From NCBI GenBank assembly GCA_036510225.1, contig DATCEH010000008.1, positions 15,361 through 79,360 on the forward strand: a DNA stretch of 64,000 nt, given 5' to 3'. This document shows, piece after piece, positions 34,165 to 43,079 of the stretch; position 1 is the stretch's first letter; each line of letters starts with the position of its first letter. The translations under genes were made by a program, and so were the position numbers. Below the pieces are notes generated by a model. It did no database searches, had not been told where the DNA came from, and worked only from the letters and a program-made list of their open reading frames with translations. Source of the stretch: Solirubrobacteraceae bacterium (lineage in GTDB: Bacteria; Actinomycetota; Thermoleophilia; Solirubrobacterales; Solirubrobacteraceae).

Positions 34165-34521
34165 GTGCTCCAAACGCCACACCCCGCCCGCTGCCGGCGG
34201 TTGCCGCGCGCCTCGCGCGAAGCGCGGGCCGCTCTCACCGGGGTTGGCATCGCGGCGCTACTGATCGTCCCCGTCGCGATCAGGCTCATGCCGGGCAGCG
34301 CCGTCGGGACGAACCTCGCGGCGGCGAGCACGAGCACGCGAGCATTTCCGACGTTCTGGGTCGTCCACGCCGGCCAGACGCTCGGCGTGGTCTCGGCGGC
34401 GACGGGACTCAGCGTGGCCGCGATCGAGCAGCTCAACCCCCACGCCGATCCCGGCGAGCTGATCCCCGGCCAGCGCATCAGGCTCCGCCCGACGGCGCCC
34501 AGACCACCGCGCAAACCGTGA
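34165..34521 (+). CDS. LysM-domain protein
   Basis: N-terminal TM/signal-anchor (GVGIAALLIVPVAI). The C-terminal VVHAGQTLGVVSAATGLSVAAIEQLNPHADPGELIPGQRIRL is a LysM motif. Confidence 0.7.
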   Translation: MLQTPHPARCRRLPRASREARAALTGVGIAALLIVPVAIRLMPGSAVGTNLAAASTSTRAFPTFWVVHAGQTLGVVSAATGLSVAAIEQLNPHADPGELIPGQRIRLRPTAPRPPRKP

Positions 34522-34847: not shown

Positions 34848-35699
34848 TCACTTCTTGCCGAGGTCAGTCTGATGTGCGTCGAGTAGGCGGGCGGCCTCGC
34901 CGGCCAGCGCGGAAATGCCGCGAAGATCTTGGATGACCTGAGCTAGCGAGCTTCCTGGGTCCGTATGAGCCTCGGCGGCGTCGGAAACCGCTCGCATCGT
35001 GCGCCCCTCGAACTCCCAAGCTAAGTCGAGGGTCTGCCAGAGCTTCTCTACGGCTGTCGCGCCAGCGCCTGCAAGCAGTGTGCCGAGTTTCTCGGCGTTC
35101 TGCTGAGATGCCTCTGGACCTCGGCGGCAGATGAACGCGTTCCAGCGTTTGTCGAGTGCATCTCGACCGTCCGCGTCGAGGCTTGCCAGGCGGTGCGCCG
35201 GGTCAACGCCGAGCGCCCTAACGAGAAAGAGGTTCTTCAGCTGTGCGATACCGGGCTCGGCCAAGCCGTGACCAGCGGGCAGCCCGAACCGCGAGAAGTT
35301 GGTGCCGCCCGCTGACGCCGCGACGTCGTCTGCCTCTGCAGGCGTGATGATGGCAAACAGCAGGCGACCACGACCGCCGCTTCGGTCGGGCCGATTGCCA
35401 TACGCGGTCGGGATGTGGCAGTCATCCGACAGCAGCAATGCCCGACCCGGAAGGTTCATTGTGTCGCGGTGCTCGCGACCTTCGCGCTCGCGTCCCGAGC
35501 GGCCGTGGGCACGCAGGATGTCGCCGGCCAAAGGGAGCTTCTCGCTCGGCTCAGCGTAAAACGCGCCAGTCAAGGGCGCCTTCGGCGGAAACGCCGCCGT
35601 CGCCAAGCGAACGGCGTCACCCTGGAGATGCACGTCGAACAGGTACGGGGCTTCGAAGATGTCGCCGAACAGCACTTCGGGCCGCGGCTTGACGTACAC
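34848..35699 (-). CDS. uncharacterised protein B of the two-gene operon (possible MazF/PemK/CcdB-fold-like N-terminal half plus helical tail)
   Basis: 283-aa ORF with GTG start 8 nt after the stop of gene A. Non-shadow composition and locally lower GC. Motif order GDIFEAPYLFDV ... GRALLLSDDCHI ... GRLLFAIITPAEA ... FSRFGLPAGHGLAEPGIAQLKNLFLV ... RLASLD mimics the strand order of Kid/MazF-type toxins. This is an inference and unverified. Confidence 0.65.
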   Translation of the reverse strand: MYVKPRPEVLFGDIFEAPYLFDVHLQGDAVRLATAAFPPKAPLTGAFYAEPSEKLPLAGDILRAHGRSGREREGREHRDTMNLPGRALLLSDDCHIPTAYGNRPDRSGGRGRLLFAIITPAEADDVAASAGGTNFSRFGLPAGHGLAEPGIAQLKNLFLVRALGVDPAHRLASLDADGRDALDKRWNAFICRRGPEASQQNAEKLGTLLAGAGATAVEKLWQTLDLAWEFEGRTMRAVSDAAEAHTDPGSSLAQVIQDLRGISALAGEAARLLDAHQTDLGKK

Positions 35700-35707
35700 C
35701 GTGTCGG

Positions 35708-36574
35708 CTAGACGCGGCGTCTGTGGGCGAGCAACTCGGCTGCTGCCCGGCGTCCTGAGGCGGCACCGGCAAGTGAGAACGACGTCGCGACCGCTTCTCG
35801 CGGGCGGTCGCTATCCCAATAGGCGGCGTCAAAGGAGAAAGCTTGTGCCCTGCGCTGGGTATCCAGCAGCGTCTCGCTCCAGTCACCATCGGTCACGGCG
35901 GACCAGTCCAGTCCAGGGGACTCGGTCAGGGTCGCGTGGGTTTCAAGGGCGGGCATAACAAAGTCCATTCCAGTTCCCATGACCGTTACATGCTCGACGG
36001 CCACAGCGCTGCCTTTGTGCATGGGGGCTGCGACTCGGTTAGACGAGAAGCGCTCCTTGCGTTCGGTCAACGCAATGACGTACATGTCAGCGGACCGTCG
36101 GTCGACACGCCCAAACTCACTGGAGAAGCGAACACCCCACTCTGCCAACTCGTCTTCGGCGTCGCTTACTACCGCCCCCCACTCCAAGACCGCGGGCTCT
36201 GCGAGGTCTGCAAGTCGTTGTACCACGGTGTCGAAGCGCCAGACAGGGAGTCGCTGAGCGTGAACGACCTCGGCTACAGACTGCTGCAGACCGGCGGCGA
36301 GGTCCTGGAAGGCCGCGGAGGCGAATACCTTCGCCGTAAGACGCTCGATGCGCTCCAAAGCGCGCGGAGCTTGAAGCACCCCATCCAGCAAGCCTGCCAC
36401 GGCGAACATGGGATAGACGCCCGTCCGGATGCGGTCCACCCTCGGGAGCCAGTGCGGGGCGGGAAGCCGATGGGCCTGTTGAAGTCGCTGGCGCTGGCGC
36501 TGGGCGCGCGGTCCTCCACCGAGGAAGGTCTCAATCTCGTGGTGGGTGACAAATGCCGGCAGAGCTTGGGCCAT
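35708..36574 (-). CDS. uncharacterised protein A of the two-gene operon (possible N-terminal excisionase-like HTH)
   Basis: The most plausible start is ATG 36574 (MAQALPAFVTHHEIETFLGG...AHRLPAPHWLPRVDRIRTGVYPMFAVAGLL), but the track ORF extends to 36844, so the start is uncertain. The C-terminal roughly 200 aa have no recognisable family. Confidence 0.6.
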   Translation of the reverse strand: MAQALPAFVTHHEIETFLGGGPRAQRQRQRLQQAHRLPAPHWLPRVDRIRTGVYPMFAVAGLLDGVLQAPRALERIERLTAKVFASAAFQDLAAGLQQSVAEVVHAQRLPVWRFDTVVQRLADLAEPAVLEWGAVVSDAEDELAEWGVRFSSEFGRVDRRSADMYVIALTERKERFSSNRVAAPMHKGSAVAVEHVTVMGTGMDFVMPALETHATLTESPGLDWSAVTDGDWSETLLDTQRRAQAFSFDAAYWDSDRPREAVATSFSLAGAASGRRAAAELLAHRRRV

Positions 36575-36939
36575 AGCGGAAGTGTAGTGCAACGACAGAA
36601 TGTCGTGACGACGCGACGACAATACGTCGCCTTCAGAACAATCCAGACTTGGTCCGCGGGTCGCAGCCCCAAGGAAGCTGCGCGACCGGGGCAGCCTGAC
36701 CCCCGCCGTCTCCGCCGTCCCCGATGCGGGCATTGTCGTCGTGGAACTCAAGGACGGACGCAGACTTTCAGGCTGTCCGCGCATCGGCCCGCAGCACCGC
36801 GATAAGCACCATCTCCCTTTCCGAGGACCCGACCGGCGCTCCACAAATCTGAACGGGAGCGCGCCGCTCCGAACAACCTCGCCGCGGTTCAGACCTCGCC
36901 GTACACCGACCTATCCGTGGAACGCGAGTAGCCTCAAGG

Positions 36940-37649
36940 ATGATGTCCGCGCGTGTCGATGATACCGGCGCTGCCCACGCCGGCAGCCAGCTCCAGACCC
37001 AGCTTTACGTCAATCAGCGGCCCGGACAGCTCGACGACGCAATCCGCGCCGAGTTCACCGACCTCGCTGAGGCGACCTTCACGTGGCGAAGCCCGCTCGC
37101 GGCTGACGGCTACGCGGAGTACTGGGACAAGGCGTTCCTTGAACAGGTCGGCCTCCGCCACCACGCCTCGGACCTGAAAGCGTTCTGGCCGACGGGCGGC
37201 CCGCATTGGGATGCACTCGCGACCGTGCAGCTGCCTGGTGGCGACCGGCCGGGCGTCCTACTTGGTGAGGGCAAGAGCTACCCCGGTGAACTCTACGGTT
37301 CCGGGTGCCAGGCGAAACCGAACTCGGTATCGCGCACGCTCATCGAGAAGTCGCTCGCCAAGACTCAGGAGCTACTCGGCGTCAGAACGAAGACTCCCGA
37401 TGACTGGTGCGGGCCGCTCTACAGAACGCCAACCGCCTCGCGCACGTCTACTGGCTGCGCTCTCGCGGCGTGCGCGCCTGGCTCGCGCACCTCCTGTTCG
37501 TGGACGACCCCCACGGGAAGACGACTGCCGGCGAGTGGGAGCTCTCGCTCAAGCAGGCAGACGACGAACTCGGCCTCACCGGACTTGCAGTGCCGGCGGC
37601 CGGTCACGTGCTGCTCCCGGCAGGAACCCGGGAAGAGCTGCTCGCGTAG
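36940..37649 (+). pseudogene. nuclease-like (PD-(D/E)xK-type motif) gene with a 1-nt frameshift
   Basis: ORF 36940..37698 is sensible up to ...TPDDWCGPLY, then turns to nonsense. ORF 37407..37649 in the next frame continues LQNANRLAHVYWLRSRGVRAWLAHLLFVDDPHGKTTAGEWE.... Restoring one C after TAC at about 37422 gives a continuous GPLYQNANRLAH. GPHWDALA...VLLGEGKSYPGE resembles a D...E-x-K nuclease core (inference). Confidence 0.55.
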
Positions 37650-38109: not shown

Positions 38110-39621
38110 GTAGGCGTTCAGAGGGGTCAGGGGGACATAACTCGCCAGCGTCGAATCCCGGGGTGTGGAGCGGGCGGATGCAGCGGCGATTTATGACGCG
38201 GGGCGCGAGGTCGTCATCGAGGTTCTGTTGCGGATGGATCGCCAGATCGAGGTGTTGACCGGGCAGGTCGCGCGTCAGGGTGAGCGGATCGCGGTGCTGG
38301 AGGCGAAACTGGCGGCGAACTCGCGTAATTCGTCGCGGCCGCCGAGCACCGACAAGCCGGCGAAGGCGCCAAAGCTGGCGAAGGAGCGGTCGCCGCGCAT
38401 GCCGGGCGGTCAGTCCGGGCACCAGGGTCACGGCCGGGAGTTGCTGCCGACTGCGGCCGTGGATGAGGTCATCGAGCATTGGCCACTCTTGTGCGGGTGC
38501 GGCCACTTGTTCACCGAGGGCGAGCGGGTAGCGGTCGGGCCGGTGGCGCGTCATCAAATTGAGGAACTGCCGCGTATCGCGGTCAGGGTGATCGAGCATC
38601 AATGCCCCAGGGTGAGTTGCCCAGACTGCGGCGGCTCGCCACGCGCCGATCTACCGCCCGTGGTCGCCGGCAGCGCGTTCGGGCCGCGCTTTCAGGCCGC
38701 CGTTGCGGCGCTCGTCGTGCGCAACCGTGTCTCGCGCCTGGACGCCGTCGAGCTCTTGGAGGAGCTCTTCGGTGCGAGGATCAGTACCGGCGCGATCGAG
38801 GCGATCCTCACACGGACCGCTGACGCGCTCGAGGAGCCGTGCCGCGACCTGCTTGAGCATGTCCAGGCCAGCACGGCGCTGAACATCGACGAGACGGGGT
38901 GGCGCCTGAAGGGCGCCCAGCGAGCGTTGTGGGGCGCGTTCACCGACCGCCTCGCCGTCTTTCAGATCCGCGCGGACCGTCACGAGGATCATGCCCGCGC
39001 CCTGCTCACCGGGCATCGGGGTGTCGTGACATCTGATCGCTGGTGGGCCTACAACCACCTCCCGTTGACTCGACGCCAGGTCTGCTGGAGCCATCTGCGC
39101 CGTGACTTCCAGGCCCAAGCAGAAGGCCTCGACGCGCAGGCCGAACTCGGCAAAGCCGGACTCCAGGTCTGCGAGACGGTGTTCGCCGCGTTCCAAGCTT
39201 TCCAGGACACCAACGACCGCGACGAGCTCAGACGCCGAATCCGCGCCGCGCAACGCGAACTCAAGCCCATCCTGCGCCGCTACTGCGGCAAAGCACCAAG
39301 AAACAAGCGCACCCGTGGCCTCGCCCGAAACCTCCTGAAAGTCTGGCCCGCACTGTGGACGTTCGCCCGGATCCCGGGCGTCACACCGACCAACAACCAC
39401 GCCGAGCGCGGCCTCCGCGGAGCCGTGATCGCCCGCAAACTCTCGCTCGGCAGCCAATCCGTCGATGGGGAGACGCGCACCGCACGCCTCCTCACGGCCT
39501 CGATCACCTGCCGCCTACAACAGCGCAGCCTCTTCGACTACCTCACCGACCTTCACGCCGCCCACGGCATCGGCGCTCCAGTTCCCCTGCTCACCTGAGC
39601 CGAGGGGGACTGAACGCCTAC
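38110..39621 (+). mobile_element. IS66-family insertion sequence (single-transposase type)
   Basis: Terminal inverted repeats GTAGGCGTTCAG (38110-38121) and CTGAACGCCTAC (39610-39621) bracket the transposase ORF. Only a short shared TATTT is visible in the flanks, so the target-site duplication is not clear. Confidence 0.75.
38165..39598 (+). CDS. IS66-family transposase
   Basis: 477 aa. An N-terminal leucine-zipper-like helix is followed by NSRNSSRPPSTDKP, the typical IS66 TnpC motif. It also has a zinc-finger-like CPRVSCPDCGG and a DDE region with NIDETGW. Confidence 0.9.
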   Translation: MERADAAAIYDAGREVVIEVLLRMDRQIEVLTGQVARQGERIAVLEAKLAANSRNSSRPPSTDKPAKAPKLAKERSPRMPGGQSGHQGHGRELLPTAAVDEVIEHWPLLCGCGHLFTEGERVAVGPVARHQIEELPRIAVRVIEHQCPRVSCPDCGGSPRADLPPVVAGSAFGPRFQAAVAALVVRNRVSRLDAVELLEELFGARISTGAIEAILTRTADALEEPCRDLLEHVQASTALNIDETGWRLKGAQRALWGAFTDRLAVFQIRADRHEDHARALLTGHRGVVTSDRWWAYNHLPLTRRQVCWSHLRRDFQAQAEGLDAQAELGKAGLQVCETVFAAFQAFQDTNDRDELRRRIRAAQRELKPILRRYCGKAPRNKRTRGLARNLLKVWPALWTFARIPGVTPTNNHAERGLRGAVIARKLSLGSQSVDGETRTARLLTASITCRLQQRSLFDYLTDLHAAHGIGAPVPLLT

Positions 39622-39962
39622 GGTATTTGATTCAAGCGGTCCCCGCCGATAGCAGGCAAAGGTACCGAATGGGTACCGAAACCGGCGGTCGATTCGCGTC
39701 CAAGCGCGGCCCCGCCGCCACCGTCTCGCGAGGTGCCGCCGGCTGACTCCTTCTCAGTGGGCGCAAGCGCTTCGGTCGGCAACGCGAGTCGGACCGGACG
39801 ACCGCATCGTCGCCTTGCGGTTCCGAGGGGGATCTCGCGGTGACGCGGGACCGGCGCTCGGAGGTCGCGGGCAGCGTTGCCCCAGATCGCGTGGTTCGCG
39901 CCCTCGCGAAGAACCTCGCATCCGTGTGCGCGCAGGTGAACTTCGAGCTCGCGCCGCTTCAA
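39618..39962 (-). CDS. hicA: HicA-like mRNA interferase toxin with an aberrant long C-terminal tail
   Basis: The TTG start overlaps the hicB stop. LKRRELEVHLRAHGCEVLREGANHAIWGNAARDLRAPVPRHREIPLGTARR matches the HicA pattern (G-x-H...PRH-x-EI). The ORF then runs about 50 extra codons and stops at a TAG inside the IS66 right terminal repeat. Confidence 0.65.
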   Translation of the reverse strand: MKRRELEVHLRAHGCEVLREGANHAIWGNAARDLRAPVPRHREIPLGTARRRCGRPVRLALPTEALAPTEKESAGGTSRDGGGGAALGRESTAGFGTHSVPLPAIGGDRLNQIP

Positions 39963-40192
39963 GCGGCGAGGCTGATCGTCAGCGACTCGACGTGGCCGCC
40001 GCCGATCGCCGGCTCTCGGCCCTCTTCGCGGTAGGACGCAATCATCTCGCGCGCCGCGTCCAGCAGCATCTCGCGCGCTTCCTCGACCGTACGCCCGCAG
40101 GTCACGACGGCAGGCCACTCCGCGAGCTGCGCCATCGTCCAGCCGTCCTCGTCGGGCGTGAACACGGCCGTCAGCGTCATCGAATCGCTCAT
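39959..40192 (-). CDS. hicB: HicB-family antitoxin
   Basis: From ATG 40192: MSDSMTLTAVFTPDEDGWTMAQLAEWPAVVTCGRTVEEAREMLLDAAREMIASY, a HicB N-terminal RNase-H-like fold signature. The track ORF 39959..40369 is over-extended. Confidence 0.8.
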   Translation of the reverse strand: MSDSMTLTAVFTPDEDGWTMAQLAEWPAVVTCGRTVEEAREMLLDAAREMIASYREEGREPAIGGGHVESLTISLAA

Positions 40193-40652
40193 CAGAGACC
40201 AAGTATGCACCCGGGCGGGCTGATCTTGCCAACTGAGGCAGGCCGATTTAACCGCGGCCTGACCGGGGGCGGCGAGCACCGCGCTGTCCTGTCCCGGGTC
40301 CGGAACGTCGACCGCCGAGCCTGGAGGCCGGGTTATCGAGGCTGGCGGTCTATCGATGATCCTCGGCATTGTCGATGCCCGGCACCTAGACCGACGTGAT
40401 CCAAGGCTCGCGTGACGGCGCTGATCTGACCCGTGTGCCTACGCGCCGGCGCCGGCCGCAGCCAGGAGCAAGCCGGAGGGCGGGAGCCCTCGACTGCTCT
40501 CGGCAGCCGTCCGTGAGCGTCGCCGCGGACGGTCGGTTTGCTCAGTTCGACGTTGTCGGGCTTACGATCGCGTCGGCGACAACCCGATCATCCGGCGTCG
40601 GACCAGCGCTGTGGCCTGTTCCACTCGCGCGATCATGACGTCGCCCAGGCGA

Positions 40653-41008: not shown

Positions 41009-41335
41009 TCAATGCACGACGACGGGCGGCGTGCCGGCGCCGTTCTCGACTGGGATCAAGTGGTATTGCACGACGTAGCCCAGACTGTCTGCGTAGCGCT
41101 CGACGGTCGATATCTTCGCGTCGGTCGCCGTCGTCTCAAGCCTGGCCACCGAGGATTGCGACGTCGCCATCGCGGCGGCAACGGCCGTCTGCGACCGACG
41201 CTGTGCCTCGCGTCGCTCGGCGAGCGCGCGGAGCAGCTCGCGGCGTCGAACAGCGGCGGCGAGCAGACTAGGGAAGTCCGGGTTCCGCGCCGTGCGCTTG
41301 GCGATCATCTTGTCTAGAAAATCAGGCTCGGTCAT
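41009..41335 (-). CDS. XRE-family HTH antitoxin (HigA-like)
   Basis: 108 aa. LRALAERREAQRRSQTAVAAAMATSQSSVARLETTATDAKISTVERYADSLG is a Cro/C1-type HTH. It lies directly downstream of a RelE/Gp49-like gene. Confidence 0.8.
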   Translation of the reverse strand: MTEPDFLDKMIAKRTARNPDFPSLLAAAVRRRELLRALAERREAQRRSQTAVAAAMATSQSSVARLETTATDAKISTVERYADSLGYVVQYHLIPVENGAGTPPVVVH

Positions 41336-41399: not shown

Positions 41400-41803
41400 T
41401 CATCGGTGGAGAGGCCGCCTTCCCTGCGCGACACGTTTCGCGTCGCCGCGCCGTCGCCAGTCCGCCAGGCGCCGCTTCGCAAGCTCGATCGTCCCGCGCG
41501 GCGTCTTCTGGGTCTTCTTCTTGAGCCCCTCCAACGCGAGCAGCACCTGACCACGACCGCCCTCCTCGGCGAACAGGATGCGGTGATCACGCGGTCGCCG
41601 TCTACCCGAACCTCCCAGATGTCGTCTTCAAGATGCCGGGCGGCGACCAGACCTTGCGTCCGCACCCCCTGCATCCCGGCCAAGACCGCGGCAGCGTCAC
41701 CGTCGGAAAGGTCGTCGATGAACTCCTCGACCGGACTGCGACCGGCGGCCGTCTCGTAGCCACGCCAGCGACGACGCGGGGCCGGTGGGCCGGACTCAAC
41801 CAT
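41400..41803 (-). pseudogene. RelE/ParE-superfamily (Gp49/HigB-like) toxin gene with frameshift
   Basis: The ORF 41363..41803 N-terminus, WRGYETAAGRSPVEEFIDDLSDGDAAAVLAGMQGVRTQGLVAARHLEDDIWEVRVDGDR, is Gp49-like. The conserved continuation HRILFAEEGGRGQVLLALEGLKKKTQKTPRGTIELAKRRLADW is readable only in another frame, switching at about 41585-41600. The true stop is TGA at 41400. Confidence 0.65.
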
Positions 41804-41821: not shown

Positions 41822-42440
41822 TCAATCGCCGAGCAGCTTGTCGAGTGCCGCGGGACTCGTCGCCCCGGTCTGCGCCTCGAGCAGCCGCGAGAGCTTGTCC
41901 GCCGCATCGTTCTGCGGCACGTGATGCACGTAGATCATCGTCGTCGCGATGTCTGCGTGGCCCATGTACGCCTTCACGTCTGACAGCGGGAAAGCCCGGA
42001 CGGCGAGCGTGCCGAACGTGTGGCGCAGGTCGTGGCAGCGCAGATGCTCGATCCCAGCCGCCTCCAGCGCCCGGTAGTAGCGACGGCGCAGGGCCGAGTC
42101 CTCGAAGAACGTGCCGTTCGGCCCGGGGAACACGAGGTCGTTGACGCCGACGAGGTGGCCTCGCCGGCTGACCTCGTCGAGCACTCGCGCGACCTGGTCG
42201 ATCATCGGCACCGCCCTCACCTGCCCGGCTTCGGCACGTCCTCGAGACCCATCGTGTACGACCGGCGCACGTGGATGATCCGCTTCGGAAAGTCGACGTC
42301 CCGCCAACGAAGCGCCCGCAGCTCGCCCAGACGCACACCCGAGAAGGCCGCCGTCGTGAAGATTGGGGTTCGAGACTGCCGGCCGAACACAGCGCAGTCG
42401 TCGTCGTCGCGAGTCGCGCCAAGACCGCACATGCGCGTGA
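41822..42440 (-). pseudogene. tyrosine recombinase/integrase relic (catalytic domain only, frameshifted)
   Basis: ORF 42217..42579 carries AAFSGVRLGELRALRWRDVDFPKRIIHVRRSY (Arg I box). ORF 41822..42457 in another frame carries VRAVPMIDQV...HLRCHDLRHTFGTLAV...VKAYMGHADIATTMIYVH (HxxR, H/W, Tyr). The frame switch is at about 42217-42235. The N-terminal SAM-like domain region is occupied by vapB on the other strand. Confidence 0.75.
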
Positions 42441-42456
42441 TAGCATTTTGCAAGCA

Positions 42457-42687
42457 ATGGCCAATCTGCTTGTCCGTGATCTCCCTGACGATGTCCACGC
42501 GGCTCTCCAGCAGCGAGCTAAGCGGGACGGCCAGTCGCTGCAACAGTACGTCACGCGCGAGCTCACAAGAATCGCTCACCGGCCAAGCCTCGGCGAGGTG
42601 TTGGACCGGATCGAGCGACGCGCCGGCGGCACCGTCGGCCTCGCGCAGGCTCTCGATGACCTTGCCGAGGAGCGCTCGCGGGGTTGA
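42457..42687 (+). CDS. vapB: VapB-type antitoxin (FitA/Arc-like ribbon-helix-helix)
   Basis: From ATG 42457: MANLLVRDLPDDVHAALQQRAKRDGQSLQQYVTRELTRIAHRPSL.... Its stop overlaps the vapC start. Confidence 0.8.
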   Translation: MANLLVRDLPDDVHAALQQRAKRDGQSLQQYVTRELTRIAHRPSLGEVLDRIERRAGGTVGLAQALDDLAEERSRG

Positions 42688-43079
42688 TCGTCATCGACGC
42701 GAGCGTGCTCGCTAACGCGATTGGCGACGATGGTACCGATGGGCACCGGGCTCGCACGGAGCTGCGCGCTGCCGGCGAGCTGGCAGCGCCGGACCTCGTC
42801 GATGTCGAGACGACGGCCGTGCTTCGCAAGCGCTGGCTCGCGGGATCCATCAGCGAGCAGCGCTTTGCCGTTGCCATCGAGGATCTCGAAGACCTCTACC
42901 TCGATCGCTACCCAACGCTGCTACTCATGCGCCGCGCCTACGAACTGCGGGCCAACCTCACTACATACGACGCCGCCTACGTCGCGCTCGCCGAACTGCT
43001 CGGTTGCGAGCTGCTGACCGGCGACGGCCGGCTCGCCAACGCGCCTGGACCACGCTGCACGATCCGATTCCTCACCTGA
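42684..43079 (+). CDS. vapC: VapC PIN-domain ribonuclease toxin (intact)
   Basis: MIVIDASVLANAIGDD...LAAPDLVDVETTAVLRK...YPTLLLMRRAYELRANLTTYDAAYVALAELLGCELLTGD. All four acidic PIN positions are readable in one frame. Confidence 0.88.
   Translation: MIVIDASVLANAIGDDGTDGHRARTELRAAGELAAPDLVDVETTAVLRKRWLAGSISEQRFAVAIEDLEDLYLDRYPTLLLMRRAYELRANLTTYDAAYVALAELLGCELLTGDGRLANAPGPRCTIRFLT

Follow-up and report, generated by a model that had tools for sequence, protein, structure and literature searches.

A rare two-gene cassette from Solirubrobacterales that pairs a predicted MazF-fold protein with a candidate DNA-binding partner

What do two tightly coupled genes do when neither can be assigned to a known family by its sequence? 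The question is raised by a 64,000-nucleotide stretch of contig DATCEH010000008.1 from a Solirubrobacteraceae bacterium (the whole of which is referred to here as the window), in which two such genes, A and B, stand at the edge of a decayed mobile island. A preliminary description of this DNA had guessed that they encode a regulator and a large toxin, possibly acting together with a divergent nuclease-like gene, C. Our results suggest that A and B together make up a cassette that is complete in itself, moves horizontally and is of the type II toxin-antitoxin (TA) or abortive-infection kind, a reading to which we give an even chance of being correct.

Gene A (288 amino acids [aa]; 35708..36574, minus strand; ATG at 36574, stop at 35708) is the upstream partner of gene B (283 aa; 34848..35699, minus strand; GTG at 35699, stop at 34848), and the 8-nucleotide (nt) spacer between them reads CCGACACG; coordinates and spacing are as previously described. 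Homologs of A begin at matching MSQ/MAQ..PAF(V/I)THHE residues, and this shared N terminus, together with a conserved -10-like TAnnnT hexamer before the ATG, supports the assigned start. B has 46 homolog clusters of conserved length (family range, 265 to 306 aa) and is the conserved effector candidate of its family; at NCBI an identical sequence is entered as a hypothetical protein from a metagenome-assembled genome of the Solirubrobacteraceae. For A there are 8 close homolog clusters, and an exhaustive profile search yielded 71 representatives at 50% identity. Against the closest homologs, the ratio of nonsynonymous to synonymous substitution rates (dN/dS) is 0.15 to 0.18 for A and 0.12 to 0.14 for B, with dS near saturation. 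The homolog clusters, conserved lengths and dN/dS values bear out the earlier view that these are not chance open reading frames (ORFs): A and B are genuine genes under purifying selection. That neither could be placed in a known family by sequence also held, as Pfam, NCBIfam, PADLOC and PDB profiles all came up empty; Pfam and NCBIfam gave no match for A, B or C, and PDB sequence-profile searches with the three families gave chance-level matches only.

An indication of the nature of B comes from its predicted structure. An AlphaFold2 model built from an alignment of 33 sequences reached a predicted local distance difference test score (pLDDT) of 87 and a predicted template modeling score (pTM) of 0.78. 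When this model was compared with the PDB by Foldseek, ranks 1 to 30 were all MazF, EndoA or MazF-mt chains, including MazF of S. aureus and D. radiodurans (probability, 0.98 to 1.00; E values from 2e-3; target-normalized TM scores, 0.55 to 0.71), and CcdB appeared from rank 32. Among the predicted viral structures of BFVD, the two best matches were both named PemK-like protein. Residues 1 to 175 (35175..35699, minus strand) are thereby predicted to form a MazF/Kid-type SH3-like barrel composed of beta1 (residues 11 to 17, FGDIFEA), beta2 (85 to 91, GRALLLS), alpha1 (95 to 100), beta3 (112 to 120, RLLFAIITP), beta4 (137 to 140), beta5/6 (150 to 161) and beta7 (170 to 174). The preliminary description had likened the N-terminal half of B to the Kid/MazF/CcdB barrel on the basis of a few short motifs and had proposed structure prediction followed by Foldseek as a check; an SH3-like barrel was returned, with the motifs falling on its strands in the same order. 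The large insertion and the helical tail that it had noted are also found in the model.

The insertion, delimited by predicted secondary structure and the alignment, comprises 67 residues (18 to 84; 35448..35648, minus strand) and occupies the beta1-beta2 loop, which in MazF is the short catalytic loop. Within it D22 and D28 are near-invariant, and 27 of 33 sequences have H65; the clade of the window carries an Arg/Glu-rich segment here that distant clades lack. The C-terminal domain (residues 176 to 283 plus the stop codon; 34848..35174, minus strand) is predicted to consist of four long helices (176 to 191, 195 to 208, 214 to 243 and 249 to 282; pLDDT, 90 to 98), in which W186, R192-R193-G194-P195, N201, K204, W228 and E231-G232 are invariant or nearly so. 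Over the whole protein the invariant set is F11, G12, D13, A87, D92, C94, G111, R112, L113, F115, A116, F158, L182, A188, R192, R193, G194 and E231. MazF carries its catalytic arginine (R29 in E. coli MazF) at the head of beta2, and in B this place is taken by R86 in 29 of 33 sequences (the position is matched by strand order only), which makes R86 a possible catalytic residue. The MazF/Kid-type barrel of B is thus well supported for a prediction; membership of B in the PemK/MazF family (PF02452) and RNase chemistry are not established.

The genomic surroundings of B homologs point to a unit in which B is the fixed component. Among 45 collected loci (given L numbers below), 40 B loci were scanned with six-frame ORFs and family hidden Markov models, L045 was assessed by annotation, and four were C-family loci. 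In the B loci examined, B always lies behind a tightly coupled upstream gene, in one of three architectures. The A-B arrangement is found in the window and about 24 fetched loci, with B identities of 28 to 100%; A lies directly upstream of B in these, in line with the earlier expectation that the two would prove to be paired in other genomes. In the second architecture, a TIGR04255-family protein (279 to 303 aa) and a helix-turn-helix (HTH)-like protein (303 to 305 aa) precede B (L004 to L007, L012 and L030; partially in L022, L026 and L036). In the third, which lies inside integrative elements, a 223-aa protein and a 152- to 160-aa protein do so (L002/L003, L027, L031/L032, L034 and L045). 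A and B are separated by 3 to 15 nt, and genes of the other architectures overlap by up to 4 nt. That all upstream partners might be distant homologs of A was considered and dropped, because hhalign found no global similarity between the partner families and only a short C-terminal motif is common to them. As B is kept while its upstream partners are swapped, B is the constant element and its partners can be exchanged. Divergence is also faster in A than in B, with identities in the same locus pairs of 31 versus 46%, 44 versus 64% and 51 versus 64%.

The motif shared by the partners lies at their extreme C termini. [GA]x[TSNP]M[TSAV]R occurs 1 to 9 residues from the end of 21 of 53 full-length A-family representatives (proteins P0177 to P0239); none of 394 internal windows contains it, and shuffling of the tails yields about 0.04 occurrences per shuffle. 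The unrelated 152- to 160-aa partners also bear it (L002:7540-7998, L027:9522-9998, L031:9513-9998 and L034:9519-9998), and the 152-aa ones end in ...RGGGTMRRR. The simplest reading of this pattern is that the tail is a docking peptide for B, and it could alternatively be a degron or a substrate. A of the window falls in another subclade, whose tail reads SGR[RKE]AA..LL and is helical in a low-confidence model.

Some loci deviate from the regular arrangement. In L021 (593-1471; P0029), residues 1 to 173 of A are fused in frame to the start of B, with deletion of the C-terminal third of A. B is frameshifted or split in L011 (8001-8839) and L040 (2-803); A is intact in L011, and L040 ends short of the upstream gene. 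Copies with an inactivated toxin are typical of TA cassettes, and the numbers here are too small for such copies to be weighed as a signature of that kind. In the subclade nearest to the window, A is immediately preceded by an ORF of 195 aa (L008:6111-6698; probably also L014:2908-3495, L017:643-1230 and L018:2345-2932). The L008 copy matches Pfam Collagen triple-helix repeats, the L014 copy has no Pfam match, and the ORF is not present in the window.

A second line of evidence lies in the DNA upstream of A. A perfect CGACA-N3-TGTCG palindrome, CGACATTCTGTCG (palindrome 2; 36593..36605, minus strand), overlaps the -35/spacer region of the A promoter, and 24 bp upstream of it lies CGACGTATTGTCG (palindrome 1; 36617..36629, minus strand), which has one mismatch to a perfect palindrome. 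Palindrome 2 is kept in position in L008, L010, L011, L013, L014, L017, L018, L021, L024, L025, L033, L035, L037 and L039; variants are found in L001, L009, L016 and L029, two clades carry close variants, and a second site at the 24-bp spacing recurs in L008, L010, L013, L014, L017, L018 and L021. One or two copies thus stand at the same position even where the A proteins are only 30 to 50% identical, and no conservation was seen among the A-B loci outside the sites or further upstream. The strict palindrome was counted 24 times in the 396 kb of fetched loci, with 23 of these occurrences at an A promoter and none upstream of operons with other partners, and in the window the perfect form is found only at the A promoter. 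So strong a phylogenetic footprint implies a conserved sequence-specific DNA-binding protein, and the conserved N-terminal region of A is the obvious candidate. Since almost every A-B locus has the operator-like sites at its A promoter, A may bind them and repress its own operon.

A -10-like hexamer, TACACT (36581..36586, minus strand), can be read from the sequence 6 nt before the A ATG, and TAnnnT hexamers recur 6 to 10 nt before the ATG in homologous loci. A scan with the sigma-70 consensus found no promoter at A, and the promoter proposed here is based on the comparative conservation of this hexamer. Its position so near the ATG suggests that the A mRNA is leaderless or near-leaderless.

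The organization of A is compatible with a multi-domain regulator and neutralizer. In the family alignment its near-invariant residues cluster within the first 60 aa, which carry the motif F-x-T-H-x-E-[LI]-x-x-x-L-G...R-x-R-x-R...L-P-x-P; next come a middle section of helices, a beta-rich section at about residues 148 to 208 and a basic C-terminal helix. The preliminary description had taken the N terminus for an excisionase/MerR-type HTH. A role in DNA binding gains indirect support from the conserved palindrome at the A promoter; the assignment to the excisionase/MerR type found no profile match. The N terminus resembles the HTH_17 pattern, a likeness that profile search did not confirm. A search of the PDB with the A-family profile returned nothing relevant, and profile scans gave no sigma-factor match for A. 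A is probably a DNA-binding autorepressor and neutralizer of B. Two longer proteins, P0214 (611 aa) and P0222 (595 aa), join the first ~230 residues of A to an S-adenosylmethionine (SAM)-dependent methyltransferase and SnoaL_2, so that the A module can serve outputs other than B. A fusion to B was sought among the A-family proteins and none was found, the long ones being methyltransferase and SnoaL_2 fusions. A further protein, P0230 (1000 aa), which contains many tandem 'ATLGQDEIDALLGGGK' repeats, matched the N-terminal (H)EI(E/D)xxLGGG motif of A in the profile search; this is probably a low-complexity coincidence, and the repeat resembles the FliM/FliN-type 'EIDALL' peptide.

Taken as a TA-type cassette, the A-B operon would be read from a leaderless-type promoter, and the N-terminal domain of A would bind one or two CGACA-N3-TGTCG palindromes overlapping that promoter and repress its own operon, while the C-terminal part of A would hold B inactive. 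B would be the effector, with a strongly diverged MazF/Kid-fold domain, a catalytic loop expanded to a 67-residue subdomain and a four-helix tail. Upon loss or titration of A, for example, by loss of the element, proteolysis under stress or infection by a phage, unbound B would stop growth, most likely by cleaving or binding RNA as MazF does. This reading draws on the toxin fold of B, the order of upstream partner and downstream effector, their tight coupling and the synteny of A and B. It draws also on the operator-like sites at the A promoter, the swapping of partners with faster divergence of A, the shared partner tail, R86, the low G+C content at third codon positions (GC3), the mobile, defense and TA genes in the vicinity and the purifying selection. 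Two co-directional, coupled genes that are kept as a pair and have a patchy, mobile distribution are also generic features of type II TA systems. We infer from these features the binding of DNA by A, its neutralization of B, and the toxicity and RNase chemistry of B.

A number of observations weigh against this reading. Pfam returned nothing for B or the 33 family members even at an E value of <=10, the B-family profile search of the PDB gave no MazF match, and hhalign of the N-terminal domain against a small, 7-sequence MazF alignment gave a probability of 0.1%. At position 119, the equivalent of the MazF catalytic threonine (T52 in E. coli MazF) at the end of beta3 (by strand order, not superposition), T or S is present in only 19 of 33 sequences; the invariant D13, D92, C94, R112, R192/R193 and E231 have no MazF counterpart, and a large subdomain stands where MazF has its catalytic loop. 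A, at 288 aa, is large for an antitoxin, its AlphaFold2 model (7 sequences) is of low confidence (pLDDT, 44), and 51 A-family members matched no HTH family or other Pfam entry at an E value of <=1. PADLOC-DB 2.0 gave no match for A, B or C at an E value of <=1, no B homolog was found in phage, plasmid or IMG/VR collections, and housekeeping genes surround many of the A-B loci. Domains of the MazF fold can moreover be nontoxic, as CalpT is an anti-sigma factor that is nontoxic alone (10.1101/2024.05.08.593097).

Comparison with mazEF-type operons reveals both likeness and distance. MazF, Kid and PemK, together with CcdB, have the barrel fold predicted for residues 1 to 175 of B, and MazF has an arginine at the start of beta2 as do 29 of 33 B-family members. 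mazEF-type operons resemble A-B in placing the partner upstream and the effector downstream in tight coupling, in their promoter palindromes and in being mobile, patchy cassettes. However, MazF is a small single-domain protein of ~110 aa, in a family of about 100 to 120 aa, whereas B has 283 aa with the 67-residue insertion and a 108-residue four-helix domain. B has no sequence or profile similarity to MazF/PemK, with the Thr-equivalent unconserved, and A, in contrast to MazE, has 288 aa and no AbrB, ribbon-helix-helix or MazE signature. In type II TA systems, multi-domain antitoxins have an N-terminal DNA-binding domain and a C-terminal neutralizing tail. A resembles these in its conserved N terminus, its palindromic operator, its variable C terminus with a short peptide or basic helix, and its faster evolution than its partner B. 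It differs from them in matching no known antitoxin or HTH family, in its extra beta-rich middle and in the occurrence of its N-terminal module in the methyltransferase and SnoaL_2 fusions.

Could B be a switch component rather than a toxin? CalpT, the MazF-like anti-sigma factor of the CalpL-CalpT-CalpS (CRISPR-T) system, which HHpred is reported to detect as MazF-like, provides the precedent. By analogy, B would be a noncatalytic MazF-fold anti-factor that sequesters A until a signal frees A, as a transcription factor, to change expression; we consider this the main rival, though an unlikely one. CalpT is, like B, a two-domain protein of ~270 to 285 aa with an enlarged N-terminal MazF-like domain (~23 kDa) carrying extra helices, has a DNA-binding or transcription protein as its partner, and shows that the fold can occur without general RNase toxicity: it binds and silences CalpS, and the sigma factor is toxic while CalpT is not. 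The replacement of the catalytic loop and the unconserved Thr-equivalent in B would fit such a role, as would the presence in A of the most conserved, DNA-recognition-like region together with a conserved operator. Yet no protease gene (Lon-SAVED or CHAT) or sigma factor gene is linked to B in any annotated locus, and SAVED-Lon protease, extracytoplasmic function (ECF) sigma factor and type III CRISPR are all missing from annotated B neighborhoods. The second domain of B is four-helical with no Pfam match, whereas that of CalpT is an immunoglobulin-like DUF2080, and neither Pfam nor a limited hhalign run detects in B the likeness to MazF that HHpred finds in CalpT. A's own promoter is the only place where operator copies were seen, a pattern that suggests autoregulation and nothing more, and it is B, not A, that stays constant when partners are exchanged, as would be expected of an effector more than of an accessory anti-factor. 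Less probable still, and in our view doubtful, is that B is an enzyme with non-MazF chemistry, for example, Cys-dependent chemistry via D92, C94 and H65, for which the barrel is only a scaffold and the target either some molecule of the cell or the partner's conserved C-terminal tail. The D92-x-C94 pair is invariant, 27 of 33 sequences have H65, and MazF has a counterpart of none of these residues. In addition, the C-terminal peptide shared by unrelated partners could be a substrate as well as a docking site; against this, Foldseek and profile searches revealed no similarity to thiol enzymes, and H65 is not invariant.

Two further explanations are refuted by our data. Gene C (36940..37649, plus strand) is adjacent to A and divergent from it at a distance of 365 bp, and the idea that A, B and C form one three-gene defense unit with C as its nuclease effector takes up this proximity and the invariant D...E-x-K motif of C. 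C is a frameshifted pseudogene that has lost 1 nt near 37424/37425 (CTCTAC^AGAAC); uninterrupted homologs of ~235 aa cover 99 to 100% of the repaired 236-aa product at up to 79% identity, as expected from the deletion noted before. Among 29 diverse homologs, D91, E110-G111-K112, Q162, N165 and R166 are invariant, which upholds the conservation of the D...E-G-K arrangement that had been compared with PD-(D/E)xK nucleases, while no Pfam or PDB profile matched C or its family. C is absent from all 40 B-family loci scanned and belongs to a far larger family (263+ clusters, ~235 aa), whose members are stand-alone genes near integrase and IS110 genes with no A or B (L041 to L044), and in the window it is broken while A and B are intact. 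The synteny data thereby refute the three-gene unit, to which we give a very small probability, along with the earlier suggestion that C is part of the A-B unit; C is a passenger of the island unrelated to A-B, and its family is probably an uncharacterized PD-(D/E)xK-like nuclease family in its own right. The smallest probability goes to the view that A and B themselves are spurious ORFs or functionless decaying remnants. Their location in a decaying island beside pseudogenes would favor it, but the conserved lengths, homologs down to 28% identity, dN/dS values of 0.12 to 0.18, confident structure model of B and conserved promoter architecture refute it.

A more specific version of the effector hypothesis is that B is a new anti-phage or abortive-infection effector family, whose rebuilt MazF-fold core is restrained by swappable sensor-regulator partners via the shared C-terminal peptide; we regard this as possible but tentative. 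On this view, a subdomain has taken the place of the catalytic loop of the core, which has also acquired a helical tail and invariant D/C/R residues of its own. If it is true, different partners (A; TIGR04255 with an HTH protein; the 223-aa and 152-aa pair) would couple the same effector to different infection cues. A parallel is provided by GajC of type II Gabija (Liu-DS1), a large MazF-like protein with a helical insertion that is the presumed effector of a validated anti-phage system and whose beta1-beta2 loop is essential (PMC13069673). GajC resembles B as a MazF-like protein enlarged by helices, but it pairs with the UvrD-type helicase GajB, whereas no helicase is consistently linked to B, and its 5-helix insert is internal, whereas the extra helices of B are mainly C-terminal. 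CalpT and type II Gabija are analogies, not families containing B.

The distribution of the B family accords with a mobile element. Of 185,579 species genomes, 4 contain B homologs (from Solirubrobacterales, Dormibacterota and one unclassified bacterium); a further 24 loci come from metagenomes, and integrases lie near B in several of the loci. In L045 (2591-14200), a 223 aa-160 aa-B operon lies between two integrase genes, beside AbiEii/AbiEi and a TraG/TrwB-type coupling protein; the flanking integrases and the coupling protein mark the operon as cargo of an integrative conjugative element (ICE) or ICE-like element. The rarity, the varied chromosomal contexts, the nearby integrases and ICE genes and a GC3 below that of host genes indicate that the A-B distribution is patchy and mobile and that the genes are horizontally acquired.

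The association of A-B with defense genes is only partial. In L009 (3646-6484) and L001 (4544-6980), complete Bil-type ubiquitin-like operons adjoin A-B in divergent orientation (Pfam matches to BilA_UBL_2, BilB-like and BilD_N in L009 and to ThiF and Prok-JAB in L001), and the A operator lies in the intergenic region common to both operons; the function of Bil is anti-phage (10.1101/2023.09.04.556158). These two loci count as one event because they are close relatives. In L012 (10347-15528), genes for DNA_methylase, HATPase_c_3, a 70-aa ORF, a 298-aa ORF and a DUF6339 protein lie beside an integrase and the TIGR04255-HTH-B operon; this looks like an uncharacterized restriction or defense cluster. 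Among pooled Pfam counts around the loci, only Fic (2 members), integrase (2) and AAA_16 (2) stand out.

If B is a working effector, it represents a MazF-fold family that every sequence profile currently misses, and together with CalpT and GajC it would widen the range of the MazF/CcdB fold; the family is so far confined to poorly studied soil lineages (Solirubrobacterales and Dormibacterota). Three swappable partner sets with a common tail peptide offer a natural system for studying the wiring of one effector to different regulators, and the conserved 13-bp operator and A provide a directly testable protein-DNA pair with a candidate DNA-binding domain of no known family. The A-B module is rare and unnamed, not categorically new. 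As uncharacterized TA-like cassettes are numerous, its value is moderate, and it touches no long-standing question.

The DNA around A-B fits the earlier description of a decayed mobile island, with IS66, a broken integrase, pseudogenes and lowered GC3. Within the high-G+C window (~69% overall), the G+C fraction falls to 0.65 to 0.66 in segments of the 35- to 37-kb region, compared with ~0.69 to 0.70 in the flanks, so that A and B do lie in less GC-rich DNA as had been noticed. GC3 is 0.71 for A and 0.74 for B versus 0.94 for the adjacent glutathione S-transferase (GST) gene and 0.93 for the ABC-transporter gene beside it, and A-B is placed at the left edge of a ~9-kb stretch with reduced GC3. 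To the right follow C, the IS66 transposase (38165-39598), an HTH_31 gene (41009-41335) with a 48-aa Gp49/HigB-like remnant beside it (41400-41546), a tyrosine integrase relic split over two frames (41822-42579) and a PIN-domain gene (42684-43079), after which ordinary genes resume. Most of the neighbors listed in the preliminary description were thus found: IS66, the HigB-like and HTH_31 pair, the integrase relic and the PIN gene were recovered, a HicB-like ORF (39959-40369) is recognizable by eye with no Pfam match, and the iteron array was not detected by Tandem Repeats Finder within 33.5 to 44.5 kb. Rfam and tRNA scans of the island gave no matches, and IMG/VR held no C homolog. To the left of A-B are the core genes, namely, the GST and ABC-transporter genes (GC3, 0.93 to 0.94) and, convergent with B, a gene for a small LysM-domain protein (34165-34521; 118 aa; GC3, 0.87), which marks the left border between core DNA and the island.

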